From IMG/VR virus record IMGVR_UViG_2778261064_000025: 18,722 nt of DNA; one strand, given 5' to 3'. The notes under the pieces are model-generated. The model made no database searches. It was not told the origin of the DNA and was given only the letters and a program-made list of their open reading frames with translations. Made by a program: the position numbers and the translations under genes. This DNA is from a virus (taxonomy: Duplodnaviria > Heunggongvirae > Uroviricota > Caudoviricetes). Each line of letters opens with the position of its first letter. The stretch's first letter is position 1. Below, piece after piece: positions 725 to 17,165 of the stretch.

Positions 725-1012
725 TTACTGTCTCTGGCAATCTTTATCACGATAACGCCTGAAGTACCCTCTCGCTTCCTCATCCATACCAAGAGCCGAA
801 TGAGTCCGCTTAACTGCCTGTCTTAAATCTCCGAATCTGTCTGTAGTTGCTGGTGGGCGTGCCGCCTTACGGATACATTCAGAGCGTCTGTTTGCTGCAT
901 GTTCACGTTCTTTATCGCCATCTGCCAGCATCATGACTTCTGCCCATCGTGCGGCAGCTCTCCGGTATAGCCCTTTTGACTCCAGTTCTTCAGCTTTCCT
1001 GTCCCTTATCAT
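725..1012 (-). CDS. PerC-family transcriptional regulator-like protein (95 aa)
   Basis: ORF track 725..1012. The N-terminus MIRDRKAEELESKGLYRRAAARWAEVM resembles the PerC-family pattern (AE.LE..GL.RRAA.RW) as I recall it from prophage/island-encoded PerC/Pch homologues. Confidence 0.5.
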   Translation of the reverse strand: MIRDRKAEELESKGLYRRAAARWAEVMMLADGDKEREHAANRRSECIRKAARPPATTDRFGDLRQAVKRTHSALGMDEEARGYFRRYRDKDCQRQ

Positions 1013-1048: not shown

Positions 1049-1169
1049 GTTGGTTCAGTTGGTTCAGTTGGTTCAATTTGTAAAGATCGTTGTTTTTATT
1101 GTGTTTTTTCTGAAATATTGAACCAACATCAACTCATTTTGAACCAACACAGCCCAGCTCTGAACCAAC
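1049..1169. repeat. Iteron array L: GTTGGTTCA x3 in tandem (1049-1075) plus inverted TGAACCAAC x3 at 1119, 1140, 1161 (21-bp phasing)
   Basis: Counted directly in the sequence. The same 9-mer family recurs in mirrored arrangement at 9509-9619. Confidence 0.75.
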
Positions 1170-1271: not shown

Positions 1272-1712
1272 ATGGTCTTTGCAATGAGCAAATCTAATCT
1301 GGTCGCGTTCCGCATCCCATCTGAATTGCAGGATGAGTTTAATCGGTCTGTTCTCGCTTCTGGAGGGGATAAAACCTCCTGGCTTGTTGATGCGATTCGC
1401 ATGAAGCTGGGACAGCCGGAAAAGTCTATTGATTCACGAATGCTTGGGCTGGTGGAGCGCATGGAAAAAGCCGCTGCGTCGCTTATTGCCGGAAAGCCGA
1501 ACATCCCACCAAAGCCATATAACGAAACGGCAGTTATAAAGATCATTGCCGATACCATCCGACAGGGATTTGATAATGGGCGTGTGATAGCGGAACGGCT
1601 CAATGAAGCAGGCTACCAAACAAAAGCTGGTAAAGCGTGGGATAAAGACATTTACAGCGCGTGGAAGCGTCAGGGTAACAATATTAAAAGAATCAATACG
1701 CTGCTTCAGTAA
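1272..1712 (+). CDS. Hypothetical DNA-binding protein (146 aa), possible ribbon-helix-helix N-terminus; alternative start at 1284 (MSKSNL)
   Basis: ORF track. The N-terminal segment VAFRIPSELQDEF...SWLVDAIRMKLG looks like a beta-strand plus helices of CopG/Arc-type proteins. The C-terminal IAERLNEAGYQTKAGKAWDKDIYSAWKR resembles recombinase-domain HTH segments. No obvious Shine-Dalgarno. The antisense ORF 1199..1603 looks like low-complexity junk. Confidence 0.5.
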   Translation: MVFAMSKSNLVAFRIPSELQDEFNRSVLASGGDKTSWLVDAIRMKLGQPEKSIDSRMLGLVERMEKAAASLIAGKPNIPPKPYNETAVIKIIADTIRQGFDNGRVIAERLNEAGYQTKAGKAWDKDIYSAWKRQGNNIKRINTLLQ

Positions 1713-1741
1713 TTGATCAGTGTATAAATGATATTTATCGC

Positions 1742-2764
1742 TCAATCGCTCCCTTTCCGCCCTTCAGCTACAGGGTCGTTGTCGGCGATAACAAAACCTA
1801 AGTCCTGAGAGAATCTCTCTCGTGGGAATCCTTTAGCAGGTAAACCCATTGAATCATATCCACATCCGGGAACATTTGGTTTAGAGTCAATAAGGTCTGC
1901 AATTTGCCGAAGCCATGTTGATCCCGGACCAAGTCGTTTAACTAAGTACCAGATAATACAGATCGCGCTAAAAATCCTCTCGCAACTCTCTGGATGGAGA
2001 TTAAGTCCGTCAAAGTATTCATTATCCGGTACTGGAACTCGGGGATGCTTTCTATTCCATATTCTGGAATGGTGAGCGCAACGATTCCTTATGAGATTAA
2101 GGCACTTCAACCATTTTGCAAATGTCTGCTTATTATCAATGCCAAAACGACGTATAATTTTCCCCTGCATATGACCATTAAGCATCGCATAATATTTAGA
2201 CATCTGACCAAAATCCCAGGTCTCCACCGCCACCCAAAATGGAATCTCCTTGCCTTGGCTTCGATGCCATTCAATACAGTCATCTCTGCTTTCGTCTAAT
2301 TTTACTTTTTGCTTATACACCCAATGCTCGAAGGCAGATGAGAATTTTGGATTAATGTATTTTGATGACATGTAGGCAAGTGGATCATTGCGACCAACCT
2401 CATGCGCGATGACTGAACGAACATGAATCTCTATTCTTTCGATAGCATCAATCATCAAAAGACGCAGTTTTTTGTCAAAAAGATATAGATCGTACGTCTT
2501 CTCGAAACTGGTACCAGCAAGAAATCGGTCTGTTCTGTACGAAAGACCTTTATCTGTTGTCGCAATAATTCTTGATGGGTACCAAAAACCTGACAATCGA
2601 TAATATCCAACCTGCAACAGCTTACGTATCGCACGATTTCGATCATTGATAATCATGCCACGTTCAAGTAGCAATCCTAGCAATTCGTGATAGTCCTTAT
2701 GAGGCTTTGCGGCAATCATAGTGGCAAAACAAAAGATAATAAAAGGCCCGACCGTGAAACTCAC
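1742..2764 (-). CDS. Abi_2 family (AbiD/AbiF-like) abortive-infection protein; start uncertain (GTG at 2764 or ATG at 2719)
   Basis: ORF track 340 aa. Contains KPHKDYHELLGLLLERGMII...YYRLSGFWYP and RNRCAHHSRIWNR, matching the Abi_2 family signature as I recall it. Size fits AbiD/F proteins. Confidence 0.7.
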   Translation of the reverse strand: MSFTVGPFIIFCFATMIAAKPHKDYHELLGLLLERGMIINDRNRAIRKLLQVGYYRLSGFWYPSRIIATTDKGLSYRTDRFLAGTSFEKTYDLYLFDKKLRLLMIDAIERIEIHVRSVIAHEVGRNDPLAYMSSKYINPKFSSAFEHWVYKQKVKLDESRDDCIEWHRSQGKEIPFWVAVETWDFGQMSKYYAMLNGHMQGKIIRRFGIDNKQTFAKWLKCLNLIRNRCAHHSRIWNRKHPRVPVPDNEYFDGLNLHPESCERIFSAICIIWYLVKRLGPGSTWLRQIADLIDSKPNVPGCGYDSMGLPAKGFPRERFSQDLGFVIADNDPVAEGRKGSD

Positions 2765-2828
2765 ATGCCTGAAATCGGCGGCGGAGAAACAGAGGATCGG
2801 GCTCGGTTGCCTGTAACTCTATCCGAAG

Positions 2829-2931
2829 TTATCCACATGTCAATGCACAGTTACTTAGGAAACTAACATAGGTACTATCACCACTCACGAAAAACCACTA
2901 TATGTGGTTTTTATTCATATCGTTATCCACT
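2829..2931. promoter_or_regulatory. Two DnaA-box-like 9-mers (TTATCCACA 2829-2837; TTATCCACT 2923-2931) flanking a hairpin AAAACCAC-tatat-GTGGTTTT (2893-2913)
   Basis: First 9-mer matches the DnaA-box consensus TTATCCACA exactly, second has one mismatch. The hairpin is followed by a T-run. All read from the sequence; function inferred. Confidence 0.3.
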
Positions 2932-3096
2932 ACAGGCTGTGTCAATAACTTTTACCTATTAATTGGGTAATTTCTACATTTTCCTATGCTGGCTAGTTTC
3001 TCTACTGAAAAGTTGGCACTCCTTAATCGCTTTTCGGTTAATACTATCGGTTTTCATATTGCCAGCAGCATACGCCATCCGATAATTTCTATGCTA

Positions 3097-3475
3097 CGCG
3101 CGCGTACTTGTCGCAAAATATCAGGCAAAGGCCAGATTCAGAAAGTCGTGATAACCACCAGCACAACATGAGAGGTCATGTAACGCGATTTATCACACCA
3201 GATACATGTGATTAGTGTACCCGCATAAAACATCGTCATAGCGCGTCCTGTGCGCATATACGCCGATAATCAACACATCACCACCACTCTGACTTATGTA
3301 GAGAACAGTTTTATGGTACTCCCCTCCATCGTGCGCGTACTGGTCGGACGTAGTTGCAAAATTTTTTGCAACTGATACCCCTCGCGCGCGTACTTGTCTC
3401 GAAATTGGTGTTTTGCTGTGGCAGTGATATCAGAAAAATCTTCCTGTTTCACATAAAGCGGATATGCGCGTACTG
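3097..3475. repeat. Four direct copies of GCGCGTACT (3100-3108, 3333-3341, 3386-3394, 3466-3474); copies 1 and 3 extend to ~20 nt (CGCGCGCGTACTTGTC.C.AAAT)
   Basis: Read from the sequence. The motif falls in different codon phases of the overlapping ORFs, so it is conserved at DNA level rather than protein level. Confidence 0.55.
3353..3372. repeat. 20-bp AT-rich palindrome GTTGCAAAA-TT-TTTTGCAAC
   Basis: Perfect inverted repeat read from the sequence, lying between repeat copies 2 and 3. Confidence 0.5.
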
Positions 3476-3589
3476 TAACGGCCCCATCAACTGGGAGCGG
3501 ATTTGAAATCCCGACCCAAGCTATGTACCAAATGCCATGTCTTGGATATATGATGATTGCCATTCTAAACAACGCTAAAGGGGGTTGGT

Positions 3590-4204
3590 GTGAGCAGAAA
3601 AGATACTAAAGAATTGCTAACTATCTGCATGGTGTACTTTTCAATTTATTTTTGTGCATACATGATAGTCCCAGATGAGTTTGAACATGGCAGTATTATT
3701 TATTCCATAACATTCTATTTTTTAGAGCTAACACCAATTTTGGCTATCCTTTTGGCAATACATATTTATTTTTCCTTAAAAAAAGAATCGACTAATTGGG
3801 AGAAGGTATGGAGAGACAGAGGATTTCTAACATCACCTAAAGATGATGCATATGAGAGTGATTTTTCTGACTTTATAACAAACTACTACTCCAGCGAACA
3901 ATTCAAAAATAGACTGTCTGATGTTTGGGAAACAGCAATGTATTCCATAGGGATTATATTATTGATACTTACTGGTATTGCTCAATATGTTTTTAACATT
4001 GACTTATCATTAAATCCTGAAAATTTAATATCGCCATTGATTTTTGGTGAGATATTGATCTTCTCATTCGGAATTTTCTTGAGTGTTGTTCTCTGCTCAT
4101 TATGCAAGCTACTGACTAACAGGTATCCAGGTGAAGCAAGGAGAGCAAGAAAGGCAAATCCATATTATCTTTTATTTCCTAATGGAGACAGCAGAGATAT
4201 CTAA
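3590..4204 (+). CDS. AT-rich multi-pass membrane protein (204 aa), unknown function
   Basis: ORF track. GTG start preceded by GGGGG about 6 nt upstream. Several hydrophobic helices (e.g. LLTICMVYFSIYFCAYMIV, LTPILAILLAIHIYF, AMYSIGIILLILTGIAQYVF, ILIFSFGIFLSVVLCSLC). Visibly lower GC than flanking genes. Convergent with the 701-aa gene. Confidence 0.6.
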   Translation: MSRKDTKELLTICMVYFSIYFCAYMIVPDEFEHGSIIYSITFYFLELTPILAILLAIHIYFSLKKESTNWEKVWRDRGFLTSPKDDAYESDFSDFITNYYSSEQFKNRLSDVWETAMYSIGIILLILTGIAQYVFNIDLSLNPENLISPLIFGEILIFSFGIFLSVVLCSLCKLLTNRYPGEARRARKANPYYLLFPNGDSRDI

Positions 4205-4223: not shown

Positions 4224-6329
4224 TTATTGAGCTTCTTTTTGTGATGCCTGTGCGACTCTGGTGAGCGATTGTGTGACCGTACTGATCGCTCTGTCATATG
4301 CTGTGCTACCTTTTGGCGTATTTGCCAGACGTAACAAGGCATTTCGTATAACAGGGCTTTCGTATGCCTTCGCTGCTCCGCCTACGGCACCAGCAGCAGG
4401 AACAACAAACGCAGCCGTTTTTAGCATCCCCGCTAATACTGCTGCGTTTATGATGCCACCACCAACTAACAAACCATAAAGCTGCTGACCATTTAAGTTT
4501 TGAACGTTCGCTTTTGCCGCGTGTCTTGTATCGTTGAGGTATTTAATAACGCCGTCCAGTTCCTTTCCATGTACGCCTTTAAAGAAAGTTGCTGATTGCT
4601 TCCTGTTCCGGTGTAACGCATTAATAAACTTCTCAACACTGATATTTCCAGACGGATCAGTCGCCTTATCTACAGCATTCTGAACTATGGCTGCTCGTGC
4701 GTTTTGCCTACCATTGTCATCCAGAAGCCTGTAAAGCTGAGAACGTTCTGATGGGTTTTGGCTAAAAACGAGTTTTGTTACATCCTCAGGCGTGGCCTTG
4801 CCGCTGGCTATTGCCTTTTGAACGCGCGTTCTTCCCATCATGTCATTAAATTTAGACCATGAGCGATCAACCCTTGCCATATTAATGGCTTCGTCTGCTC
4901 CAAGATTTTTGGCTACGGCTTTTTTCATATCCGCCGTATATGCCTTGTAGATAATATCGCTGGCTTTCTGGAGCGTATCTTTATCAACAGTGTCAGATGA
5001 CGCCATAAATCGCTTTCGAAGATCGGTTCTGTTTTCCCTCGCCAGACGCAGGTCATTTGGTCCGCTGGTGATATCGTCTTTAAATTGCTGCAAGACTTTT
5101 ACCGCGGCTCTATCCTGAGATTTGCCCGGGCGGCTTAACACGGCAATCTGATTGTCGATAGCTTTTACCGTGTTTGAGAGATCGACAGGGGTATCCCCCA
5201 TAGCGTCAATTATGCGGTTATATCGCTTTCCTGCTGCCTCAATGAATTTTTGTTGCCCTTTAGTCGCAGATTCATAAAGCTGTTTATCAGAAATGCCACC
5301 CAGACCATCGCTAAATGTTCTGACTAAATTTTCTCGTGCTTGTTGTTGATTCAGCCGATTCTTACCGGTTCCAAAAAAAGGAACTCTTTCGCCTAATGTC
5401 TGAGCCTGACTCTGCATAAAGGTTTTATCTTTTAGCATGTCACTGGTCATTAACGGCAGATTTCTTTCCGATGCAAAGTCGACAGCAGCCTTTGCTTCAG
5501 GCGACATATCACCACGAACAGCCCTCGAAACCGCACTCGCTGTATTTTCCAGCCCCTTACCAATACCACCAATGCCAGCAGAAATTACCGTTTGTAACGG
5601 ATCAATATCTTCTCCACCAGCAAGGCTAGTGGCTCCCTGTAGTGCTAAATCTGTAGCTGCTGATTTTCCTATGGCACCAAGCACCGTTCCAGCCCTGCCC
5701 GCTGGTGTAAACGCCAGCGCATTAGCCAGAAACGATGCCACGTCTTGCGGCGATAAACCCGGCTTGTTCAGAGCATAATCACCGGATGGCAGGGAAACGA
5801 TAGTGTTACCCTTCTCATCCTGCCTTAATTTCGCTCCCATGCTCTGAAGAATCTTTTCCTGAGATGCGTCAGAGCCGAAAAGTTGAGACCATCGAGCTTT
5901 TAGAGCATCCATGCTGAGTGAGGTTAACTCTGGGGCAAGGTCGACATTTTGCAGTCTCTCCATCTCTGGAGTCATTCGGCTTTCGCCTGTTATAGCATCG
6001 CGCATCGCAGCCCCAAGACTGGCTCCCTGTTCTGCTGAACGCTCAAGCCCCTCTCTTTGCTGAGTAGCTAACTTTGCATACCCTGACGCAAGAGAATTAT
6101 CAGATGATGTATGTTGAATATTTTGAGTTGCTGATTGGGATCGGTCTATTTCATTCGTTGATGGTAGTGGATAGGCAGCATAAAAAGCCTGCTTAGCCTG
6201 CTCTACACTTTCTCCGGCTTGCGGGGCCACGACTTCATTGAAGTATTGCTCCTGAGCCTGCGCTTTTTGTTCTGGTGCTAACGCCTGATACTGTGGAGAG
6301 GCGATAACATCTTTCCATGCTTTAGCCAT
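4224..6329 (-). CDS. Putative DNA-ejection (injection) protein, P22 gp16-like by size and position (701 aa)
   Basis: ORF track. Last gene of a four-gene translationally coupled operon (TAATG overlap at 6329). Ala/Gln-rich with a Gly-rich hydrophobic segment near the C-terminus (LYGLLVGGGIINAAVLAGML...). Assignment is by analogy to the P22 14-7-20-16 order; no search run. Confidence 0.5.
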   Translation of the reverse strand: MAKAWKDVIASPQYQALAPEQKAQAQEQYFNEVVAPQAGESVEQAKQAFYAAYPLPSTNEIDRSQSATQNIQHTSSDNSLASGYAKLATQQREGLERSAEQGASLGAAMRDAITGESRMTPEMERLQNVDLAPELTSLSMDALKARWSQLFGSDASQEKILQSMGAKLRQDEKGNTIVSLPSGDYALNKPGLSPQDVASFLANALAFTPAGRAGTVLGAIGKSAATDLALQGATSLAGGEDIDPLQTVISAGIGGIGKGLENTASAVSRAVRGDMSPEAKAAVDFASERNLPLMTSDMLKDKTFMQSQAQTLGERVPFFGTGKNRLNQQQARENLVRTFSDGLGGISDKQLYESATKGQQKFIEAAGKRYNRIIDAMGDTPVDLSNTVKAIDNQIAVLSRPGKSQDRAAVKVLQQFKDDITSGPNDLRLARENRTDLRKRFMASSDTVDKDTLQKASDIIYKAYTADMKKAVAKNLGADEAINMARVDRSWSKFNDMMGRTRVQKAIASGKATPEDVTKLVFSQNPSERSQLYRLLDDNGRQNARAAIVQNAVDKATDPSGNISVEKFINALHRNRKQSATFFKGVHGKELDGVIKYLNDTRHAAKANVQNLNGQQLYGLLVGGGIINAAVLAGMLKTAAFVVPAAGAVGGAAKAYESPVIRNALLRLANTPKGSTAYDRAISTVTQSLTRVAQASQKEAQ

Positions 6330-7750
6330 TAATCACCCCATAGTGAAGAAAAGTTACTGCTGGCTGCTGGCTGTGATACCTGCTCAGATTGCGGCAATGT
6401 CTGCGACGAAGAAGAAGTTCCTCTGTCAACTGCTGAAATAACCCGCAAAGCATCATAAGCTCGACCAGAAGCAGCTTTCAGCGAATTGAACTGGTTTTCC
6501 ATCTTCCGGCGCTTGGTATCAATGGTTTTTGTGGAATCACCAGGCTGAGGGAAATACATTTGATAATATTTGGACATTTCAGCTGGTACGATGGCTGCCC
6601 CTGTTTCCTGACGGAGTATTGCCATTATTGCGTCATTAGCATTAACAACGTATTGCTGTTCTGTTGGGCTGAGCGTTAAGTTAGCCAGCGTCCCATTACC
6701 CAAAGCATTATTAATGATCGCCACTCGCTGTGGGCTAAGCTGGTCTTTCAGTGTATCTATTGAATCAAGAGCATCCCTAACCCTGTATGCAAATCCAGCA
6801 GCTTTTTTAGCCCCTTCTGGCGACTTTTCCATGATCTTTTGGGCTGTTGGCAAAGCTATTGGACGAAACCCATCTCCAGATATTGGCTGGTTTAGTTTTC
6901 CCTGCTCTTCACTTCCGTCTGTGTAGTATTTTGTGACAGTGCCATCATCGTTTTCTCTAACACTCATTAATTTTTTGGCGTTTGTATTAATTCCAGCCGC
7001 TGCCGCAAATGCCGCCGCCCCCTCTGGATCCGCCTTTAACATTTGAGCGTACTGATTGTAATTCTGCATTGCTGCTGTTGGTGCATATGCTGACGTTAAC
7101 GCATTTGCTCGGCTAATATCCTGCCCTCTCGCCTGAAGTGCTTCGCCAGCCTGATTGCTGCGGATTGTTTCTGCCAACTTGCCACGCTCAATATCCCGAC
7201 CTTCCATTTGATCTTTGATATCGAAATACTTCTCATGACCGAGAGAAAACAGTGCCATACTACCAGCAAGCCGCTGGAACCCCTGTGGATCATTAACATG
7301 CATTTCGGCAACAGACTCAGGAGAAATTCCCAAGCGACGCATTTCATCTTCGTTATCTGCTATGAATTTTCCAAATGCCCCAGTTCCGAGCGAAGATGCG
7401 ATTTGAGCACTAGTCGCAAGATGACCAATAGAATTTCTCTGGTCGTCATCAATAAAGCCCATCCCTTTCTGAACGCTTTCAAATTCTTCTGGATACTCAG
7501 AAATAAGACTGCGCATTTTGTTTCTGTCTCCAGACTCAAAAGCCCCGGCATATGCTTTCTGAAACTCTGCTTTACGCTGTTGTTGACGTGCCGGCTGATT
7601 AATCTCAGCAACGCCTCTTAGCCCCTGTAGCGCCATTAAACCTACGTTTGGCTGCTGCTGATACTGCACAGGCTGAGGAACGGAAGAACGAGGAGCATTA
7701 TCATTTTGCGGTGCCATGCTAGGCAGCCCGCCAAGTTGCCATGTCGCCAT
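6329..7750 (-). CDS. Putative DNA-ejection protein, P22 gp20-like by size and position (473 aa)
   Basis: ORF track. TAATG start/stop overlaps at both ends. 473 aa compared with ~471 aa for P22 gp20 as I recall it. Gln-rich N-terminus. Confidence 0.5.
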   Translation of the reverse strand: MATWQLGGLPSMAPQNDNAPRSSVPQPVQYQQQPNVGLMALQGLRGVAEINQPARQQQRKAEFQKAYAGAFESGDRNKMRSLISEYPEEFESVQKGMGFIDDDQRNSIGHLATSAQIASSLGTGAFGKFIADNEDEMRRLGISPESVAEMHVNDPQGFQRLAGSMALFSLGHEKYFDIKDQMEGRDIERGKLAETIRSNQAGEALQARGQDISRANALTSAYAPTAAMQNYNQYAQMLKADPEGAAAFAAAAGINTNAKKLMSVRENDDGTVTKYYTDGSEEQGKLNQPISGDGFRPIALPTAQKIMEKSPEGAKKAAGFAYRVRDALDSIDTLKDQLSPQRVAIINNALGNGTLANLTLSPTEQQYVVNANDAIMAILRQETGAAIVPAEMSKYYQMYFPQPGDSTKTIDTKRRKMENQFNSLKAASGRAYDALRVISAVDRGTSSSSQTLPQSEQVSQPAASSNFSSLWGD

Positions 7751-8427
7751 TAGAATCCAAGCCCCCCAACAAGACCAATAAGCCCACCACCAATAGCGCC
7801 GGCCGCAGTTCCTATTCCAGGAACAACGGAACCAAGTTGCGCACCCGCTAAAGCGCCTGATGCTGCCCCACCAATACCACGCGCAAGACTGGATGGCTGC
7901 TGCGCCTGACCTGCACGAATAGCGCCAAGCCCCTGCAAGAGTTGTCCGGTATTATTGGCGTAGTTTTGCCCTGCCGTTGCCTGCCCTGATGCCGCATTCA
8001 TCCCGACATTTAGCAGGTTTCCATAATTTTGCATTTGCCCACTAAGCCAATTGTTATAAAGCATGGGCGCAATGGAAGATAACTGGTTACTGGTAGCTGT
8101 TGAGCCAAGCCCCCCGGTAGCTTCTGCTGAGACAAGGTTCTGATAACGGGCCTGATCTGCCTGTGTTTTATATAAACCAGAACCAAAGAAATCATTCGCG
8201 GCTTTATTCTGCCCTTCCAGAGTCATCAGTCCTTGTAGTTGTTGTAAAGCAGGCAATCCGACTTCTGCATACGGCTTGAGATTATTCATCACCGTATTCC
8301 ACTGCTCGCGCTGCAAATCAATTGCCTGCTGCTGGGCCTTCGCCTGAGCTTTAGAGGCACCACCATCACCGCCTTTTTCGTATACGGCACGATTGAGATG
8401 TTTATGAGCTATATGGGTAATTAACAT
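7750..8427 (-). CDS. Putative DNA-ejection protein, P22 gp7-like (225 aa)
   Basis: ORF track. N-terminal ...NRAVYEKGGDGGASKAQAKAQ resembles the P22 gp7 leader region (...PEKGGKGG...) as I recall it. C-terminal Gly-rich hydrophobic tail GIGTAAGAIGGGLIGLVGGLGF. 225 aa compared with 229 aa for gp7. Confidence 0.55.
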   Translation of the reverse strand: MLITHIAHKHLNRAVYEKGGDGGASKAQAKAQQQAIDLQREQWNTVMNNLKPYAEVGLPALQQLQGLMTLEGQNKAANDFFGSGLYKTQADQARYQNLVSAEATGGLGSTATSNQLSSIAPMLYNNWLSGQMQNYGNLLNVGMNAASGQATAGQNYANNTGQLLQGLGAIRAGQAQQPSSLARGIGGAASGALAGAQLGSVVPGIGTAAGAIGGGLIGLVGGLGF

Positions 8428-8882
8428 TCGCTGAATTCCTTATATTGTTGCCGAGTTAACTGATAAAGCGTTACGCCGACGGGTTTACCACATCTGATAT
8501 AAGCATCATCAAGGTGACCAACACGGGTAGCGCCAAGCAAACGGATAATTGCCCGTCCGTATTTCGTGGTGTCAGGAACCATAGTGATGCTGTTAAGGAA
8601 TGGTGAGTTTTCGAGAAGCCATTTGCAGAATAATCGATGTCCTTGCAGTGCATATTCACCACGGAATCCGGGGTCGTACACCGCATGGCATTCAACAACG
8701 CTATGCCAGAAGTTACGCACTTCATGAACGCCAGCCAGCACTAATCCTTCGTAGATGCCGAGATATACCGCATCAGGCTTGATGTAGTACGTGTGCCCCG
8801 GCTCAACAATATTTTCGGTATTGCCTGGCTCGTTAAGAAAGGCCTGTAATCGCACAGGGTTATCAATAAATTTTAGTTCCAT
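8421..8882 (-). CDS. Hypothetical protein (153 aa), position and size consistent with P22 gp14-like / DUF2824-type protein
   Basis: ORF track. First large gene of the operon; its stop overlaps the start of the next gene (ATGTTAA). Family assignment is from memory only. Confidence 0.45.
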   Translation of the reverse strand: MELKFIDNPVRLQAFLNEPGNTENIVEPGHTYYIKPDAVYLGIYEGLVLAGVHEVRNFWHSVVECHAVYDPGFRGEYALQGHRLFCKWLLENSPFLNSITMVPDTTKYGRAIIRLLGATRVGHLDDAYIRCGKPVGVTLYQLTRQQYKEFSEC

Positions 8883-8898
8883 GCGATGCCATCCATTT

Positions 8899-9060
8899 TC
8901 ACATACAGCCTGCCAGCGCCTTATCTATTAACCCTCGTGCAATTTCATGCAGAGTTGGCGCTACTCCAATTCCTGATTTTTTACGCTGCTCTTCCTGAAT
9001 TTTCTTTATCGCTTCCATTTGCTTCTCACTTATCAATACCGGCTTTACTGAAATAGCCAT
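8899..9060 (-). CDS. Small ORF (53 aa) MAISVKPVLISEKQMEAIKKIQEEQRKKSGIGVAPTLHEIARGLIDKALAGCM, possible small DNA-binding protein
   Basis: Hand-translated; below the 60-aa cutoff of the ORF track. ATG at 9058-9060 on the minus strand, preceded by GGGGG (plus-strand CCCCC 9065-9069). Ends 16 nt before the 153-aa gene. Confidence 0.45.
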   Translation of the reverse strand: MAISVKPVLISEKQMEAIKKIQEEQRKKSGIGVAPTLHEIARGLIDKALAGCM

Positions 9061-9073
9061 AACGCCCCCTTAG

Positions 9074-9099
9074 AACTGTATAAAACAACAGTTATTATA
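9074..9099 (-). promoter_or_regulatory. LexA-box-like CTGT-ATAAAACA-ACAG (9076-9091) immediately downstream of a perfect minus-strand -10 TATAAT (9094-9099)
   Basis: Read from the sequence. Matches the CTGT-N8-ACAG SOS-box pattern with an AT-rich spacer. The -35 is weak (TGAATA-like), so the promoter call is tentative. Confidence 0.4.
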
Positions 9100-9155
9100 G
9101 TTTCACAAATCGCAATATTCATCATCGTAATTGCAAAATATGAAACAAATAGCAC

Positions 9156-9187
9156 AAAAAAATGCCACCGCTCAGTAGCTGGTGGCA
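9156..9187 (-). terminator. Rho-independent terminator on the minus strand (stem TGCCACC/GGTGGCA with inner GCT/AGC pairs, followed by a 7-nt U-run)
   Basis: Plus-strand 9156-9187 reads AAAAAAA-TGCCACC-GCTCAGTAGCT-GGTGGCA. On the minus strand this is a hairpin followed by TTTTTTT. Lies downstream of the primase gene and iteron array, upstream of the 9094-9099 promoter. Confidence 0.55.
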
Positions 9188-9508
9188 TCGTTCTGTGTGT
9201 CAGGTTTTGACAGGTTTTTTATGGACTCTAAAAACTATATTTATGGTGTCGCATTACTCTTCACGGCAGGCGCTTTTCAGTTCTGCCCTTGCTTCTGGCT
9301 CCATTGGTAATTTGATTCGCGATCAGCTATGCGGATGGTTTGCTGAACAGGCATAACAACTTCTCAGAGGCTGTTTTCTGAACTACGAAAATTTCGTAGT
9401 GCTCACTTTCAAAAACGTCACGCCCTTGTACACAGGATTTTACGAAAGTCTCGTAAAACACTCTCTGATGCCAGCCAGGTGTTGTGCGCATCAATTCAGT
9501 CACATTGT

Positions 9509-9619
9509 GTTGGTTCAAAATACCGTGTTGTTGGTTCAGTGTTGGTTCAATAAAAAGAATAAAATCCTTATAAAACAATACTCTTTACAAATTGAACCAA
9601 CTGAACCAACTGAACCAAC
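9509..9619. repeat. Iteron array R: GTTGGTTCA at 9509, 9530, 9541 plus TGAACCAAC x3 in tandem (9593-9619); mirror image of array L
   Basis: Counted directly in the sequence. Immediately downstream of the primase-helicase stop (9645). Confidence 0.75.
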
Positions 9620-9644
9620 ACCTTTTCTACGCACATGAAGAAGC

Positions 9645-12404
9645 TCATTCTTCAGATGAGTTATAATCTCCTGGCTGGTAATTGAGTACATAAACGTTTA
9701 TTTGTCGTCCCTGAATACGTGGTGATTTTCTTTGGTATCCACGACCGCTGTTTGGTGGGGTTAGCATCCCGGCTTTTTTCAACACTTCAGCAAACTGTTT
9801 TGCGTTGAAACCACATGCGATCTCCTTTTCAAATGTGGCCGGGAATGTGTAGAAAATCATTGGGCTTTCGTCATGTTCTCCACGCTGACGGTATCCGGCT
9901 AAATCTTTGATGGGCAAATCTGCCGGGCTGTATGGAAATGGTGCAAAACGGCTAAGCCCATAGGCATTAAGAAATGCCTCCGTTTGTTCAATAATCTGCT
10001 GATGCTCTTTGTTACCTGTGCCGAACTCGCGCAACCATGCGTTATAGCTGTGCTGTATCGCATCACGGCATGTCTGAGCATCCCAGCCTGTTACAACCTC
10101 GCCTAACAACAATGCGGCCTCCAGAATGGCAAATCGCGCGGCTACACGGTGAACCTGCTCACCATAATCGGATGGGATCAGGCTTCTCCATCTGCTTTCG
10201 CAGTCGCGAACGGTTTTAATAGCCTGTTGCTGGTGGTCTGCCAGCCATTTAATCCACTCACGCCCGGACGCGCCGTGGTGATGCTGGTAAGCGTCTTTCA
10301 GTGCGTCTGCGTGCTGTTTTCCGTTCTGGTAATCGTGAAAGCGTACTGCTTTACTCAACGGAATATTCAGCAGTCGCACCAGTTGCCCGGCTTTGGTTTT
10401 TCGCCCGGAAGTAGCGATAAATGTTTCTAAATCCATTTCTCCGGTGCTGATTGCCACTGTACGCCAGCGTTTTAGATCCCGGTTTCCACCATCTTTAGCG
10501 CCTTGCAGTTTCCCTACACCGTTAAATAACGCATAGGCAGACTGTGAAACGCTGACAGGATCAGCGCCCTGACCAACTTCATCAAGCGGCATTAGTCCGT
10601 CATTGTGGGCGGCGGCCTCATTTGCCAGCCCCAGCGCGGTTCCGTACCACGTCAGCCGCAGTAAATCAGGGTTGCCGTATAAGCTGCTCGCCACGTTTGC
10701 CGTGGTGGTCTTACCTGCGCTCGACTGCTCATAGAAATGAATGCCGAACCCGTCAGCGCCCACCAGCCCAATCAATGGCGCTGCCAGTGCTGCGCCGATC
10801 CCGGTCATCATTGAATAGTTACCAAAGGCCAGACGCGCCACGTTATCACGCCAGCTTTTCGCGCTCCCTGAGACGGTATATCCGGCTGCGGCTGAGCTTC
10901 TCCCGCTGAACAGCACAGGATTTTCAGGTGTTCCGATGATTTCCCCATCAGGCATGATGTACGCTCCGCATTGCCAGCCAGTGGCATGAGCAACACGCCA
11001 CAATTCACGAGAGCCACTGCGTTGTAGCCAGTCTGCCAGTATTGCTCTGAGGCTGCTTTTGGTCGTGACATTTACCCCACCAGCTTTAAGTGTGCGCCAT
11101 CCTTCACGTTCACCAATATCAGCCAGTGGAATGGCAGCGGTTGTCGGCGTTTCAGAACCAAACGACAGCCAGCGAAGAATGAGATACTGGTCTTTATCGT
11201 CTCTGCCAGTACCGATAACGCTTAACGGAGAACATAACCAGCTTTCGTTATTGATGATTTCTCCACTCTGGCTGTCAGCTCTCGGAGATACCCAATAAAT
11301 ACCATCCTCGCGGCTTTCTATTCTTGGTTTCAGTGGGTCGGTATCCATAACCTTAAAATCGCTTCCCTCAATGGTCTGTGGCTCCTGTTTCACGCCATTA
11401 CCCTGTGGTTGGTACATTGACTTATTGAACGCTTCTGTGGCGCATTTAATGCCGTGTTTTTGGTGGTAATCATTCCAGTCTGCTTTGTGATCTGTCGGGG
11501 GTAATGCCACCCATCCAGAAACAGATAAAGCTGCTTTTTCTGCTGCTATTCTCCCCGTGTTTTGTCTTCCTTCGCTGTGGTCGTTATCCGCAGCAATGAT
11601 GATTTGTGCTGAAGGAAATTTATCCCGCAGTACCTGGGCGACATATAACAGGTTCCCGGCATCAATCGCCGCCACTGTCAGCGCCTCTGGACGAATTAAA
11701 TGGGCAGATAATGCCGTTGCCAGCCCTTCTGCGATTAAGATGCTCTGTGTTGTTTCTGGTGCGTTTATGGCGTGATATGCCCCCCGCTTTGCTGAACCTG
11801 TCAGGAGTCTTTTTTCACCATGTGAGGTAATAGTCTGTGCTGCTGTGACTGCGCCGGATTTATCCACCAGCGCCAGCAACAGAGATCCATCGGGCAACAC
11901 GGGGAATGTAAAATCACCTACCCCTTTCGCAACCAGATAATCAGATTTGCCGTTTACAGCCTTTCTGCGCATGTCATCAAACTGACGGGAAAACGTATCC
12001 CGTCTTTGTTGTTCGTCCTTCTCTGCCCTTTTCAGGCGCTCCTGTTCGCGTCGCTGGCGCTCGGTTTCCAGTTGTTCCCGTTTCTGGCTGGTGGCTTCTG
12101 GTGTTTCCGTTGTCCGGTAATCAATACCCAGAACATCAGCGGCAAGAAGCGCCGCCTCTGTTGTGTCGCAGTTATTTACGCGTTTAATTAAATCCAGCCC
12201 ATCACCAGCGCCGCACTGATTACAGATGAAGCTACCGCGCCCGTTGTCATCGAACCGGAATCGATCTTTGCCCCCACATGCAGGGCAGGGAGCATGACGG
12301 CGCGGAGAGTCAGGGACATTTATGTTCAGGCAGCCCAGCACATGAGGCCAGTTGTTTTCAGACGCACTGATAACCTGACGGATAAGATCAATGTTTCGCA
12401 TCAC
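9645..12404 (-). CDS. Primase-helicase, P4 alpha-like (zinc-binding primase N-terminus + TOPRIM + P-loop NTPase), 919 aa
   Basis: ORF track. N-terminal CPACGG...FICNQCGAG zinc-finger pairs, TOPRIM-like ILIAEGLATALS ... IIIAADNDHSEG, Walker-A-like SSAGKTT in the C-terminal half. Domain order typical of P4 alpha / D5-type island primases. Confidence 0.85.
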   Translation of the reverse strand: MMRNIDLIRQVISASENNWPHVLGCLNINVPDSPRRHAPCPACGGKDRFRFDDNGRGSFICNQCGAGDGLDLIKRVNNCDTTEAALLAADVLGIDYRTTETPEATSQKREQLETERQRREQERLKRAEKDEQQRRDTFSRQFDDMRRKAVNGKSDYLVAKGVGDFTFPVLPDGSLLLALVDKSGAVTAAQTITSHGEKRLLTGSAKRGAYHAINAPETTQSILIAEGLATALSAHLIRPEALTVAAIDAGNLLYVAQVLRDKFPSAQIIIAADNDHSEGRQNTGRIAAEKAALSVSGWVALPPTDHKADWNDYHQKHGIKCATEAFNKSMYQPQGNGVKQEPQTIEGSDFKVMDTDPLKPRIESREDGIYWVSPRADSQSGEIINNESWLCSPLSVIGTGRDDKDQYLILRWLSFGSETPTTAAIPLADIGEREGWRTLKAGGVNVTTKSSLRAILADWLQRSGSRELWRVAHATGWQCGAYIMPDGEIIGTPENPVLFSGRSSAAAGYTVSGSAKSWRDNVARLAFGNYSMMTGIGAALAAPLIGLVGADGFGIHFYEQSSAGKTTTANVASSLYGNPDLLRLTWYGTALGLANEAAAHNDGLMPLDEVGQGADPVSVSQSAYALFNGVGKLQGAKDGGNRDLKRWRTVAISTGEMDLETFIATSGRKTKAGQLVRLLNIPLSKAVRFHDYQNGKQHADALKDAYQHHHGASGREWIKWLADHQQQAIKTVRDCESRWRSLIPSDYGEQVHRVAARFAILEAALLLGEVVTGWDAQTCRDAIQHSYNAWLREFGTGNKEHQQIIEQTEAFLNAYGLSRFAPFPYSPADLPIKDLAGYRQRGEHDESPMIFYTFPATFEKEIACGFNAKQFAEVLKKAGMLTPPNSGRGYQRKSPRIQGRQINVYVLNYQPGDYNSSEE

Positions 12405-12759
12405 CGTACCCCACGTGGTCTATAGCGTTTGCGATATGGCTAACCAGCATCTGCCACTTGGTTATTCCGTAATCAGTCAGCATGCCATCATTGTTTAGCC
12501 ACATATCAAATTCAGCGGTTGTCGCAAGTTTCCACTTATCGCCGTGGACAGTCCTCATTGCTGGGTACATGAATGCGCAAATCAGATCACAAACATCTGA
12601 CGGCTTCAGAGATGTAGTAATGGTGCGTCCCTCTGGCGTCTGAATTGCCATTTTCTCTTCACCAGTAGAATGAAGGTTATGAATCCACACAGCACCAGCA
12701 ATCTTTGCCACCTGCTCTCCGATTGCGGAGCTAAGCGCCATTTCTGCATTTTCACGCAT
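12388..12759 (-). CDS. Hypothetical protein (123 aa)
   Basis: ORF track. ATG at 12757-12759 preceded by GGGAGG. 8-nt overlap with the upstream gene's stop; its own stop overlaps the primase start. Confidence 0.55.
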   Translation of the reverse strand: MRENAEMALSSAIGEQVAKIAGAVWIHNLHSTGEEKMAIQTPEGRTITTSLKPSDVCDLICAFMYPAMRTVHGDKWKLATTAEFDMWLNNDGMLTDYGITKWQMLVSHIANAIDHVGYGDAKH

Positions 12760-13093
12760 GAGAACCTCCCGCTACAGTTGCGCCCATGTCATTAACCATG
12801 CTTTGCCATATCTCACGCCCGACGTCAGTCAATCCGTCCTTAGTGACGCAACGCTCAAGAAGCTCGATCCCCACGGTTTCCCACTGCGGGTAGAACACTT
12901 TCATGGCTGCCAGTGTGTAGCTATCGATCAGGCTGCGAACGCCTTTTACTCCATTGACGATTTCCACACGTACGGCCTCGCCGTCCGCATCAACCATGAA
13001 ATAGTCCCCGCCGCTGGTGGAGGTAATGTGGTTATACAGTGCCGACGCATACTTATTTGCCAGCGCATTCAGTCGGAAATTTTTAGTAATCAT
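12752..13093 (-). CDS. Hypothetical protein (113 aa)
   Basis: ORF track. ATG at 13091-13093 with an upstream GAGG/GGAG; packed in the overlapping small-gene operon. Confidence 0.55.
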   Translation of the reverse strand: MITKNFRLNALANKYASALYNHITSTSGGDYFMVDADGEAVRVEIVNGVKGVRSLIDSYTLAAMKVFYPQWETVGIELLERCVTKDGLTDVGREIWQSMVNDMGATVAGGSHA

Positions 13094-13103
13094 GGCTCCA
13101 TCC

Positions 13104-13706
13104 TCAGTGCGTCACTGGTTCCGCTGGCATGCCGTTTTCATTCAGTTCAGCTATAAAGCTGTTGTGAAGTTCAGCAAGCGTTTCACGACCAAATGGAGTC
13201 AGTGCTCCTTGTTCCACATCCATCATGGCTCTGTAGAAAATGATGGCGCGTTCTGTGCCAGACTCGATGCCAAAACGTTCTATCATCGCGCCCTCAATGT
13301 TGTTTGCCATAGCGAGGCGCTCTGCTACTGGATACAGCGGCATGGCGACGATGCCGTTGGAATAAACAGCCACTTCGGAAGGATTGCCAGTATCATCAAT
13401 GATGCTGACAGTGCCGTTTTCCTCTCTCATTTCCAGCATGAATACTGTTGCGATCAGCCATCTCCACATAATGACGTTATGCTGTGATGTGTAATCGAAA
13501 TATCCCTGGTTGCCGCCATCGGCTATAGCGAGATGTATTGACATGCCTTCATCTGGTTTATCGTCATAATCCCCGGCATCCAGACGATTTACGGCATCAA
13601 TATATGAGACGGTCTCAACGCGTTCTGTCATGCCATCGTTGCTGCGGTGCATGATGTTTACGCCGTCAGGCGTTGCTTCTGCATGGAAAGTTAAGAAATT
13701 ATTCAT
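13104..13706 (-). CDS. Hypothetical protein (~200 aa from ATG 13704-13706; ORF track extends to 13811)
   Basis: The internal ATG at 13704-13706 is preceded by AGGCGAGG and overlaps the upstream gene's stop by 8 nt, matching the coupling pattern of its neighbours. The longer 235-aa reading is possible. Confidence 0.5.
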   Translation of the reverse strand: MNNFLTFHAEATPDGVNIMHRSNDGMTERVETVSYIDAVNRLDAGDYDDKPDEGMSIHLAIADGGNQGYFDYTSQHNVIMWRWLIATVFMLEMREENGTVSIIDDTGNPSEVAVYSNGIVAMPLYPVAERLAMANNIEGAMIERFGIESGTERAIIFYRAMMDVEQGALTPFGRETLAELHNSFIAELNENGMPAEPVTH

Positions 13707-13920
13707 GTTTCGCCTCGCCTGAATGATTCTGTAACTCATATTTGCCCAACAATTCGTCTGCTTCCTGAATAGCTTCTGGTACGCCATTGAGCAGTGACAT
13801 AACCGCGCCAATCATTAACTTGTCTCTGTTGCTGGGGCTGGCCCCTTCAAGCCAGAACCCTAAAACAGTCTGAACCTGTTCGATGCGACATTGCGCTTCA
13901 ATGAGCTGGATGTTGGTCAT
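13699..13920 (-). CDS. Hypothetical small protein (73 aa)
   Basis: ORF track. ATGA start/stop overlap with the upstream gene at 13917-13920. Confidence 0.5.
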   Translation of the reverse strand: MTNIQLIEAQCRIEQVQTVLGFWLEGASPSNRDKLMIGAVMSLLNGVPEAIQEADELLGKYELQNHSGEAKHE

Positions 13921-14180
13921 TTCGCACTCTCCGCATCGATTAAACTGATATCTATCAGAGAGGTAACTTTTTGTAGCCAGCTAGTGATTACTGTCGCCTG
14001 TTCCCCTCCCACCGATGGAAGAATCTCATTCATCACATGAACCAGACCTGTGCGCGCTCTGGTAAGCCGTTCAGTCGTGCGATCTGCAAGAGTGAATGTG
14101 TCTGGATATGGCTCTTCACGGCTCAGCAATGATTCAATTTCCAGCTCACACGGATGACGATAAATTAAGTTGATATTCAT
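13917..14180 (-). CDS. Hypothetical small protein (87 aa)
   Basis: ORF track. ATG at 14178-14180 preceded by GGGGG; ATGA overlap with the upstream gene. Confidence 0.55.
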   Translation of the reverse strand: MNINLIYRHPCELEIESLLSREEPYPDTFTLADRTTERLTRARTGLVHVMNEILPSVGGEQATVITSWLQKVTSLIDISLIDAESAK

Positions 14181-14371
14181 TTTTCACCCCCAAGAATTAC
14201 CAGCTCTGCACGGGCATCGTTAACCAAAGATGAGTACGCTTTAATCGCATCCACGACATCAGTAGCGTCCATTTCTTCAGCCGAAAGACTGACAGCAACC
14301 AGGACAGCCGCTGCTTGCTCGATTAATTGAAGTGCGGACGTAAGGCGAGGGGTATTAATTGAGTTATTCAT
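14177..14371 (-). CDS. Hypothetical small protein (64 aa)
   Basis: ORF track. ATG at 14369-14371 preceded by GGGGG; 8-nt overlap with the upstream ORF's stop. Confidence 0.55.
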   Translation of the reverse strand: MNNSINTPRLTSALQLIEQAAAVLVAVSLSAEEMDATDVVDAIKAYSSLVNDARAELVILGGEK

Positions 14372-15431
14372 TGGTTTCCCCCGTTTTTACTGGCATTTCG
14401 CCACCTTCCAGCAGGAAATGAACGTCACGAACGGCGAGATCCAATATCGCGAGTAACGCCTTCAGTCTTTCGTCTCGTGAGGGAGAGTTGCTCACCAGAA
14501 TGTCGTTAATCACTTCTGTCAGTGTGATGATCTGGCTTGTGCGTTCGAGGGGATCCATATGCACATCGTAGGTTTTAATCATGTGCCACCTCCATGCGGA
14601 TACGACCAGCAAAAAAGCAGACGTGATCGCGCACCAGAGAACGGCGAGCATCGCGTTCAGACTCGGCAGCAATATGATGAATTTTGGCGGTAATTGTCGG
14701 GCAATCGCGGCGAACTGCGGCGATAATCCAGATAAATTGCGGTTTTTGGGTAGGGGTAGTAGCCAGCATGTGGCAGCCTCCATTCGATAGCATGTAACGC
14801 TACCACCGGAAACGCCAATTTCGCTGGTGGTAGCCCAGACAGGGTTGGCGTAACCGGCTCGAATGGATACCGGCGCTTCCGAAGAAGCCCCTGCCTGAGC
14901 CACCATTGATTGACAAAGGCGCTGGATTATACACCAACGCCCAAAAAATGGGTGAGTCAGACCTACGACATAAAAAAAGACGCTCGGCGCGTCATATGTC
15001 GCCATTCGATTTACCAGGACGCCAATCCCGGCACCCGTTTTATGAGGTGCCTTATAACCATAAACCGTGTTGCCGCATAACGGCAAGCTCTTTTTTATGG
15101 ACTCCGAAAACTCACTATTGGAAGAACCAGAAGCACAGTACATCGCGCTCATTTCGTTAACGTCACGCGCGTGGACGAAGGTTTTTGTGGAGTCACTACG
15201 CGAGCAGAGAAAGCCATCTACGACCAGAAATTCTCTGGCGCAGCCGCTGACCTTCTCAACGCTAACACCATCGACCGTAATTTCTGACATAGTTAAGGCA
15301 TCCGCTCCTACCACCAGCAAATGATAAACTTTGCTTGTATCTGCTGTATTAATGCCTGACTTTGCTGTCATATTGCTGGATTTTGGCGACATACCAGCCA
15401 GTGAAAATGTCTTCTTCTGGGCGGTTAGCAT
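14364..15431 (-). CDS. Long ORF (355 codons), hypothetical; may instead be two genes, with a separate 72-aa product starting at ATG 14580-14582
   Basis: Continuous stop-free frame of 1068 nt. Start at 15429-15431 preceded by GGAGG and overlapping the DUF4222-like stop (ATGCTAA). A second in-frame ATG at 14580-14582 has its own GGAGG 6-7 nt upstream. The middle section translates to unconvincing sequence. Confidence 0.35.
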
Positions 15432-15607
15432 TTGTTAACCTCCGCGAACTCCTTCATGAAACGTGCCAGCGGTTGTACGCATGGCGATTGATACCCGTCG
15501 CGATAAAACGTCACTCGGTTGTGAGACACGCTTTCGACAGTAACGAGTGCTCCGTGGGCATCTTTGTAGCGTTTTTGAGGTTGTGGTGTTCCTGTCGGCT
15601 TAAACAT
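15425..15607 (-). CDS. Small conserved prophage protein, DUF4222-like (60 aa from ATG 15605-15607; ORF track extends to 15694)
   Basis: ATG at 15605-15607 immediately follows the upstream stop (15600-15602) and is preceded by GGAGG. Sequence MFKPTGTPQPQKRYKDAHGALVTVESVSHNRVTFYRDGYQSPCVQPLARF fits my recollection of the DUF4222 pattern. Confidence 0.5.
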   Translation of the reverse strand: MFKPTGTPQPQKRYKDAHGALVTVESVSHNRVTFYRDGYQSPCVQPLARFMKEFAEVNKC

Positions 15608-16433: not shown

Positions 16434-16445
16434 TTTCAGTCTCCG

Positions 16446-16877
16446 TTAGGCGGCGTTAAACGCGTCCGGGTAGAGTTTCAGAATGTCGGCAATTTCCTGC
16501 TGAGAAAGTCCGTTGTGATCATTTATGTTCGCAAGATGGTTAATATGAGTGATCACTTTCAGAACATCACCACGGCAGGAGAAACGGTAGCGAAGGTGTG
16601 TTCCGATACCATCAGGATTCTTTTCGTCGATACGCTCCAGAGTGATTCCGAGCTGGCGTTCTAACTCTGTTGCATAGTTACGACCAGAAGACAGACGGCA
16701 GTAGCGAAGAATGTCATTTTCTGTCCATCCCTCTATACCAGTACGCAGCATATAGACTCGGGCACGATGCTTTTTCGGCGTGCGCTTTGGTGCTTGAAGG
16801 GATTTTGTCAGGGGCGTAACATCAGATACGCGAATATCTGAATTAGCCGCCTGTAATGGGCGGTTTTTCTTTTCCAT
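16446..16877 (-). CDS. Hypothetical protein (143 aa), basic N-terminus
   Basis: ORF track. Start overlaps the AlpA stop by 1 nt (coupled). No family recognised. Confidence 0.55.
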   Translation of the reverse strand: MEKKNRPLQAANSDIRVSDVTPLTKSLQAPKRTPKKHRARVYMLRTGIEGWTENDILRYCRLSSGRNYATELERQLGITLERIDEKNPDGIGTHLRYRFSCRGDVLKVITHINHLANINDHNGLSQQEIADILKLYPDAFNAA

Positions 16878-17080: not shown

Positions 17081-17165
17081 TTATTAATATCCTGTACTAA
17101 TGACGCAATAACCCCCTCCTGCAACGAATGGCGAGAGTTTTATTTGCGTCAAATGTCGAATACGC

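Follow-up and report, generated by a model that had tools for sequence, protein, structure and literature searches.

An abi gene and its upstream RNA form a putative AbiF-type module in a variable cargo slot of an EcCIMP1-family island of Escherichia coli

Results

An Abi_2 gene with a putative RNA partner

We analysed an 18,722-nucleotide (nt) stretch of DNA from a Caudoviricetes record (IMG/VR IMGVR_UViG_2778261064_000025), hereafter the window, around an open reading frame (ORF) that a first-pass annotation, made from the letters alone, had described as an Abi_2 (AbiD/F-like) abortive-infection gene. Judged by its characterised relatives, this gene, abi, is not a stand-alone gene but the putative toxin half of an AbiF-type protein–RNA module, whose other half would be a conserved structured leader RNA encoded directly upstream. 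The earlier reading was incomplete rather than wrong, since this RNA partner had gone unnoticed. Taken as a whole, the locus is probably an AbiF-type, type III-like toxin–antitoxin and abortive-infection module, carried as exchangeable cargo by a phage-inducible chromosomal island (PICI) of the EcCIMP1 family at tRNA-Thr (thrW) in E. coli. Positions throughout are those of the window, unless another locus is named, and the coordinates of the features are collected in Table 1.

The predicted toxin is an intact HEPN ribonuclease of the AbiD/F group

The longest ORF runs on the minus strand from GTG 2764 to the stop at 1742 (340 codons), and both of the Abi_2 motifs quoted in the first-pass annotation, VGYYRLSGFWYP and IRNRCAHHSRIWNR, were found in this frame. 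Four comparisons agreed on the proposed family. The Pfam search that had been suggested as a check returned Abi_2 (PF07751) at 177.1 bits against a cut-off of 25.6 (E=5.7e-52, profile positions 2-184 of 184), and the PADLOC AbiD model matched with E=3.1e-57. A sequence search of the PDB retrieved a sole relative, 8vz6_A (E=9.7e-36, residues 4-301), which is entitled 'PbAbiF dimer bound to ncRNA' (noncoding RNA). Finally, we compared an AlphaFold2 model of the monomer, built on 22 homologues and with a mean predicted local distance difference test score of 88.6, with the PDB by Foldseek; 8vz6_A was again the sole significant match (E=1.4e-15, template-modelling scores 0.75/0.82).

The 340-amino-acid (aa) length given at first holds for the longest ORF, whereas the likely product is shorter: the true start of abi is probably ATG 2719, which yields 325 aa. 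We preferred this start and dropped GTG 2764 because the same ATG is the RefSeq start of the near-identical E. coli copies (978-nt coding sequence), because homologues are 320-332 aa long and their alignment to the window protein begins at residue 1-5, and because GTG 2764 falls within the conserved RNA hairpin described below.

The HEPN Rx4H catalytic motif, R211-N-R-C-A-H216, was located by alignment with PbAbiF and by invariance among homologues (R211/H216 of the 325-aa numbering are R226/H231 of the 340-aa numbering). R211 and H216 align opposite R210 and H215 of PbAbiF, whose R210A+H215A variant has been reported to be inactive (PMC12373285), and R211, N212, R213, A215, H216 and H217 are invariant across 22 homologues of 50-74% identity. 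In all, the 22-sequence family alignment has 86 invariant columns, which the window protein keeps by definition, the catalytic R and H included. Family, fold and catalytic motif are established by these sequence and model comparisons, which confirm the predicted protein as an intact HEPN ribonuclease (RNase) of the AbiD/F group.

That abi could instead be a decaying or inactive remnant is very improbable. Some island copies are indeed degraded: IS1 has inserted into the copy of one strain, and the primase is truncated in the near-identical E. coli locus L001. The frame in the window is nevertheless full-length and deviates at none of the invariant positions, its promoter and RNA are intact, and near-identical intact copies occur in 73 genomes.

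A covarying RNA is encoded directly upstream of abi

We fetched 80 loci encoding Abi relatives and compared the regions 5' of abi (77 upstream regions). The heptamer GGGCCTT was present in 46 of them, and GGCCT lay no more than 200 nt from the start codon in 53. A structured RNA is kept upstream of ~60 proteobacterial abi homologues. We aligned 47 non-identical RNA elements with MAFFT, blind to structure, and the RNAalifold consensus of this alignment consisted of two nested helices. Standard pairs were formed in 92.9% of the cells, versus 28-45% when the 3' partners were slid by 1-3 columns; compensatory double changes were evident in 13 of the 16 pairs, and none of 500 shuffles matched the observed pairing and covariation values. 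Covariation of the outer stem is readily seen in the sequences themselves, GCCCGAUC/GGUCGGGC in the window having counterparts elsewhere in GCCCGGCC/GGCCGGGC, GCCCAAUC/GGUUGGGC and GCCUAGAC/GUCUAGGC.

From 5' to 3', the RNA of the window comprises a CAACCGA tail, an outer stem P1 (2795-2802 paired with 2746-2753), a CUC internal loop, an inner hairpin P2 and a U-rich 3' tract that extends to ~2726. Among the homologues, the unpaired parts, namely the 5' CAAUCG tail and the CCUCUG loop, are conserved like the stems (A2, A3, G6, C15, C16 and T19 are invariant), and the inner helix covaries although its sequence varies freely. A covariance model trained on sequences that included that of the window gave a single strong match there (53.8 bits, E=3.4e-14; next best E ~1), and no further RNA copies were found in the window with the filters off. 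The model also matched non-training loci at 37-75 bits, six of them directly upstream of abi (L007, L048, L056, L063, L064 and L087).

Two other matches of the model lay off this site: one at 985-1049 of L040 (Candidatus Electronema; 75 bits), ~3 kb upstream of the matched abi, and one at 5163-5239 of L034 (Pseudomonas; 18 bits), downstream of abi. They may mark tandem or second abi copies.

G-U pairs are frequent in the alignment, with pair 21-56 being G-U in 28 sequences. Because they are so common, the fold is specific to the sense strand of abi and belongs to an RNA rather than to a DNA palindrome. It is thus extremely improbable that the motif is a DNA inverted repeat acting as the operator of some regulator, a reading that could appeal to its overlap with the promoter-proximal region and to a perfect DnaA box in the promoter spacer. 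Read on the opposite strand, the abundant G-U pairs would turn into A-C mismatches; the element is placed downstream of the promoter and not over it; and the inner helix covaries while leaving its sequence free to vary. From these comparisons, and from those of the promoter region that follow, we regard the existence, strand and structure of the RNA, its promoter and its linkage to the gene as established.

Promoter, U-tract and the alternative of a cis-acting leader

A promoter scan revealed a sigma70-like promoter, TTGACA-16 nt-TAGAGT, whose -10 hexamer stops 6 nt short of the RNA. In each of the 60 loci examined, a comparable promoter stops 5-7 nt short of the conserved 5' end of the RNA, and this fixed spacing indicates that the conserved 5' CAAYNG is the 5' end of the transcript. 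On the opposite side, the outer stem is followed by CUUUUAUUAUCUUUUGUUUU; ATG 2719 lies 12 nt past the end of the model (2731) and ~6 nt past the last U, and no Shine-Dalgarno sequence before it was visible on reading the sequence.

Still inside the cassette, a palindromic hairpin (AAAAACCAC-TATA(T)-GTGGTTTTT) was ruled out as the terminator of the RNA, as it sits upstream of the promoter. We infer that it may be a bidirectional terminator by which the cassette is insulated; the terminator scan made no call there. The promoter spacer also contains the sole perfect DnaA box of the window, TTATCCACA, at 2829-2837 (+), and an 8-of-9 DnaA box is found ~90 nt upstream, at 2923-2931 (+), beside a second TTGACA. 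By our own arithmetic, ~0.14 perfect boxes are expected per window, and the boxes near the promoter may be due to chance.

The arrangement of these signals bears on the main rival explanation, according to which the upstream element is a cis-acting leader only, that is, an attenuator or translational control that keeps abi expression low, and Abi is a single-protein system. A stem and U-tract directly before a start codon devoid of a Shine-Dalgarno sequence would suit this role, and the tail CUUCUC could pair with a downstream GGAG in many Pseudomonas loci. There are precedents too: RCd22, the RNA partner of a Clostridioides difficile AbiF, also works in cis via premature termination (PMC12373285), and the literature describes lactococcal AbiD1 as regulated at translation. 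We nonetheless consider a purely cis-acting role quite unlikely. Conservation of the 5' tail and the CCUCUG loop to the level of the stems would be needless for a plain terminator, whereas it is expected of a protein-contact surface, and the RNA binds and neutralises the protein in trans in both experimentally tested relatives. The two roles are compatible, and by analogy with those relatives the leader RNA is most likely the antitoxin of the Abi toxin.

Relation of the RNA to known families

We then asked Rfam for a name. The abiF motif, RF03085, had no match in the window at the gathering score or at E<=10, nor in 16 homologous loci, and no other Rfam family matched the leader RNA at either threshold. 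RF03085 was rejected as the identity of the RNA on this ground, and the structure described here is different and longer. A closer likeness was found upstream of a Bacteroidales relative of PbAbiF (E=2e-72 to 8vz6), where CAAC, an 8-base-pair (bp) stem and CUUUU are followed by ATG, that is, in the same layout; our covariance model matched this Bacteroidales RNA weakly (E=0.14). These similarities suggest, without amounting to proof, that the leader RNA is homologous to AbiFr, the ncRNA partner of PbAbiF.

Several observations weigh against the interpretation of the locus as an AbiF-type toxin–antitoxin module. The curated Rfam abiF motif, a criterion for AbiF-type RNA-antitoxin systems, did not turn up, and homology to the characterised antitoxin RNAs consequently rests on position, layout and one weak model match. 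Folded as a single sequence, the window RNA is barely more stable than shuffled versions (z = -1.95). Only one copy is present, where antitoxins of the ToxI type form tandem repeats. Its outer stem encloses ~42 nt, so that it need not act as an intrinsic terminator, and a simple terminator scan gave no call at this place. Lastly, the Abi protein shares only ~30-35% identity with PbAbiF, its nearest relative of solved structure.

Going beyond this interpretation, we put forward as a tentative possibility that the leader RNA represents a distinct, uncurated family partnering proteobacterial AbiF, defined by the 5' CAAUCG tail, the 8-bp outer stem, the CCUCUG loop, a variable inner hairpin and a GGGCCUUCU tail. 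P22-dependent satellites would swap whole toxin–RNA pairs in their accessory slot, and the RNA might serve as a sensor linking infection by a helper or foreign phage to release of the RNase. If true, this would provide a defence function for a satellite family whose founder, EcCIMP1, shows it as a phenotype without a known system.

The cassette occupies a variable slot of an EcCIMP1-family island

Many E. coli strains have chromosomal loci with 99% identity to the window, whose positions 7590-18722 are collinear with EcCIMP1 of E. coli MP1 (98.1% identity over 11,151 nt). EcCIMP1 is a PICI at tRNA-Thr (Pick et al. 2025, PMC11773190), whose excision and transduction occur only with the P22-like helper phage Kapi1 and in which its authors found no PADLOC or DefenseFinder system (PMC11773190). 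The island core, with int, alpA, antirepressor, ash, primase and ejection-protein genes, is collinear between the two, and the annotation agrees with that of EcCIMP1. Sequence comparison confirms the host element as an EcCIMP1-family PICI, a phage satellite of E. coli.

To delimit the cargo, the window was compared by blastn with the sister islands L082-L085, in a set in which sister islands reside at thrW, yicG-ligB and dinD. Homology ends at 1682 (or 1149/1170) and restarts at 3027-3088. Between these breakpoints (~1683-3027), four related islands have unrelated genes instead, and a fifth has an Abi allele of 50% identity. In place of the cassette, L082 has an ImmA/IrrE peptidase and an unknown gene, L083 and L084 have unknown genes, and L085, like EcCIMP1, has a small helix-turn-helix (HTH) gene; L087 carries the second Abi_2 allele together with its own RNA (61.6 bits). 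The Abi alleles were alone among the slot contents in giving a full PADLOC defence-model match, the ImmA/IrrE peptidase of L082 showing partial matches to accessory-protein models (capP, E=8e-25; RmrA). Likewise, the RNA model matched the two Abi-carrying islands and none of the five Abi-less sister islands. Conserved flanks around unrelated contents confirm, at the level of sequence, a swappable cargo site that resembles a defence hotspot, and the placement of abi as island cargo in a variable hotspot, proposed at first reading, was upheld.

The two E. coli alleles differ far more in their proteins (50% identical) than in the promoter and RNA 5' end (window 2798-2850; L087 3443-3560), which are 94% identical. 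A promoter and RNA start at this same 94% identity was detected in 55 E. coli genomes lacking the abi allele of the window; the one inspected, L087, has the other allele. The regulatory end of the cassette is either better conserved than the toxin gene or recombining. Of 5,426 complete E. coli genomes, 73 contain the full cassette, with 99.6-99.8% identity. Phage records yielded no close Abi relative, with all matches below 36% identity and most of the host-named ones from Gram-positives; the plasmid matches listed were at most 45% identical, and the summary also counts one in the 80-90% band.

These distributions are relevant to a further alternative, namely that the module serves mainly in addiction, stabilising the island by post-segregational killing, and not in phage defence. 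Toxin–antitoxin modules of mobile elements commonly stabilise their carriers, Saunier et al. raise the same idea for prophage-borne AbiF (PMC12373285), and the near-identity of the cassette across the 73 E. coli genomes would fit. We hold this to be rather unlikely as the main function: anti-phage phenotypes have been measured for lactococcal AbiD, AbiD1 and AbiF, alleles and unrelated genes are exchanged in the slot as in a defence hotspot, and many sister islands, the mobilisable EcCIMP1 included, persist without the cassette. Island stabilisation and defence can coexist.

Two neighbouring elements were considered as partners of Abi and rejected. One is orf146 (1272-1712), which has no Pfam or PADLOC match and is found in some Abi-less islands while missing from others. 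The other, AGTACGCGCG repeats together with a 92-aa ORF (3294-3572), was tried as a ToxI-like array or partner gene, but the block containing them is kept in Abi-less islands too. This block of ~560 nt (3032-3593) is 95-97% conserved in every sister island, including EcCIMP1, and is without RefSeq annotation. It contains three copies of a ~23-nt repeat with core GTACGCGC, at 3097-3119, 3330-3352 and 3383-3405, the middle copy being 70% identical to the first. The 92-aa ORF shows indels and no third-position bias and is therefore not a gene. The block may serve as a packaging site or regulatory region, or encode an RNA. Beyond it, a second variable slot (3594-4203) holds a 204-aa predicted membrane protein (3590-4204) with no family match, which is swapped for an unrelated 129-aa protein in some sister islands.

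Proposed mechanism

In the mechanism that we propose, transcription would proceed from the single sigma70 promoter (2816-2843), with a start at ~2809, and the first ~80 nt would fold into the two-helix RNA, the outer stem being followed by the U-tract. Most transcripts would probably stop after the U-tract, giving rise to an abundant small RNA, and a minority would read through into abi. Abi would be made at a low level, given that no Shine-Dalgarno sequence is visible before the gene. By analogy with PbAbiF, the 325-aa HEPN RNase (RNRCAH) would dimerise and remain inactive with one RNA bound per monomer and its active site blocked. An infecting phage could upset the RNA:protein balance, either through shut-off of host transcription or through a phage factor, and the RNase thus freed would cleave cellular and phage RNA, leading to growth arrest and an aborted infection. 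Characterised relatives are the source of this scheme in what concerns termination and read-through, RNA–protein binding, RNase toxicity, the trigger and the anti-phage phenotype.

Other features of the carrier island

The two iteron arrays between which the first-pass annotation had placed the gene proved to be real (1049-1169 and 9509-9619). The 9-mer GTTGGTTCA occurs in exactly 12 copies in the window, grouped in two blocks that mirror each other, each with three copies direct and three inverted. When one mismatch was allowed, 20 matches were scored versus 4.3 expected, a number reached in none of 200 shuffles.

Table 1. Positions of the module, of its signals and of the iteron arrays in the window.
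Feature	Position	Strand or copies	Basis
Variable cargo segment (Abi cassette)	1683..3027		Homology breakpoints against sister islands
abi gene (AbiD/F, Abi_2 family; predicted HEPN RNase toxin)	1742..2719, stop included	minus	ATG 2719, 325 aa
HEPN Rx4H catalytic motif codons, R211-N-R-C-A-H216	2072..2089	minus	Alignment with PbAbiF and homologue invariance
Conserved structured leader RNA (AbiFr-like, putative antitoxin), ~80 nt	2731..2809	minus	Alignment, covariation, covariance model
Sigma70-like promoter, TTGACA-16 nt-TAGAGT	2816..2843	minus	Promoter scan
Palindromic hairpin, upstream of promoter, inside cassette	2889..2912		Read from sequence
Iteron array 1, GTTGGTTCA	1049..1169	1049-1075 (+, x3), 1119-1169 (-, x3)	Exact matches
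Iteron array 2, GTTGGTTCA, just downstream of primase gene 9645-12404	9509..9619	9509-9549 (+, x3), 9593-9619 (-, x3)	Exact matches

At 368-382, a partial copy of the tRNA-Thr 3' end, which includes an exact 11-nt match (CGATAATAGGA, 372-382), appears to mark the far end of the island, and the integrase-side arm is repeated over 21 nt at 444-464. The tRNA side of the island is beyond the end of the window, and the near-identical E. coli locus L001 carries the matching end. To the left of the tRNA-Thr copy, the C-terminal remnant of another tyrosine recombinase was recognised at 87-341.

Homologues of P22 genes are encoded on the minus strand between 4224 and 8882: gp14 (DUF2824, 8421-8882), gp7 (7750-8427) and gp20 (Inj_translocase, 6329-7750). 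The 701-aa protein at 4224-6329 is named P22-gp16 family or injection protein in RefSeq and has no Pfam match. Ejection proteins are unusual cargo for a PICI with a P22-like helper; the EcCIMP1 paper names them merely as candidate packaging proteins (PMC11773190). Two Rfam RNAs, a C4 antisense RNA (14823-14910, minus, 79.5 bits) and isrK (14973-15050, minus, 67.1 bits), lie inside a 355-aa ORF (14364-15431) that RefSeq calls an 'ash family protein'. C4 is the immunity RNA of the P1/P7 type and here adjoins the antA antirepressor gene (15600-16433). A gene for a PerC-family regulator is located at 725-1012 (minus; Pfam PerC, E=2.6e-33), and the PerC homologue of EcCIMP1 represses, rather than activates, expression from the enterocyte effacement locus, LEE (PMC11773190).

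Implications

What appeared as a bare 'Abi family protein' annotation in some 73 of 5,426 complete E. coli genomes becomes a two-part module with coordinates for promoter, RNA and toxin. The exact coordinates are needed for correct cloning, and AbiD/F genes cloned without their leader are described in the literature as toxic or inactive. The analysis also provides the proteobacterial AbiF branch with an RNA model that is backed by covariation and missing from Rfam, and assigns to the EcCIMP1 family of P22-type satellites an accessory slot with defence-type cargo. Furthermore, the locus offers a tractable E. coli system in which to follow the behaviour of an AbiF module whose carrier relies on a helper phage. 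Satellite-borne defence genes and AbiF RNA antitoxins are both already established, and current concepts remain unchanged; the module is a solid, fairly ordinary further example of a known defence module.

Comparison with known systems

The carrier itself is closest to EcCIMP1, with which it shares 98.1% identity over 7590-18722, the gene order int, alpA, antA, ash, primase, DUF2824, ejection genes and PerC, and probably the same tRNA-Thr site. EcCIMP1 differs in having no Abi gene and a small HTH gene in the slot, and the gp20/gp16-like genes and PerC are also different.

With type III systems of the ToxIN/AbiQ kind, the module has in common an RNA antitoxin upstream of an RNase toxin, a terminator between the two and residence on a mobile element, the terminator and the antitoxin role being putative here. 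The ToxN fold is nonetheless unrelated to HEPN, and ToxI consists of tandem repeats that the toxin processes, in contrast to the single RNA unit of the window.

Lactococcal AbiD, AbiD1 and AbiF belong to the same Pfam and PADLOC family as the window protein. In these systems the upstream region is reported in the literature to be more conserved than the gene and necessary for function, a conservation echoed here by the 94% identity of the promoter and RNA 5' end as opposed to the 50% of the proteins. The lactococcal genes are, however, distant in sequence, Gram-positive and plasmid-borne, and they have measured phage phenotypes, whereas that of the window copy is predicted.

In both experimentally tested AbiF systems, from C. 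difficile and from a Prevotellaceae bacterium, a small RNA encoded just upstream binds and neutralises the protein (PMC12737573, PMC12373285). AbiFCd-RCd22, from the C. difficile prophage phi027 (Saunier et al. 2025, PMC12373285), resembles the module in its Abi_2 protein with an RNxCAH motif, in a promoter shared by ncRNA and abi and in a mobile-element carrier, and the phiC2/CD2301 copies share 28.9% identity with the window protein. In C. difficile, RNA and gene are on one promoter with a terminator between them (PMC12373285), while here a U-tract takes this position and the terminator is only predicted. RCd22 consists of two RF03085 motif copies and resides in a prophage's lysis module, as opposed to one two-helix unit without RF03085 match in the accessory slot of a PICI.

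The second tested system, PbAbiF-AbiFr, pairs the AbiF of the Prevotellaceae bacterium with its ncRNA (PDB 8VZ6; Zilberzwige-Tal et al. 2025, as summarised in PMC12737573 and PMC12373285). It differs from the window module in protein sequence (~30-35% identity) and in RNA sequence, and the window copy resides on an enterobacterial satellite and is known from sequence alone. The two are alike in protein family and fold, in the aligned catalytic R and H, and in a structured ncRNA directly upstream, and the RNA of the window shares the layout of that of the Bacteroidales relative of PbAbiF (CAAC, 8-bp stem, CUUUU).

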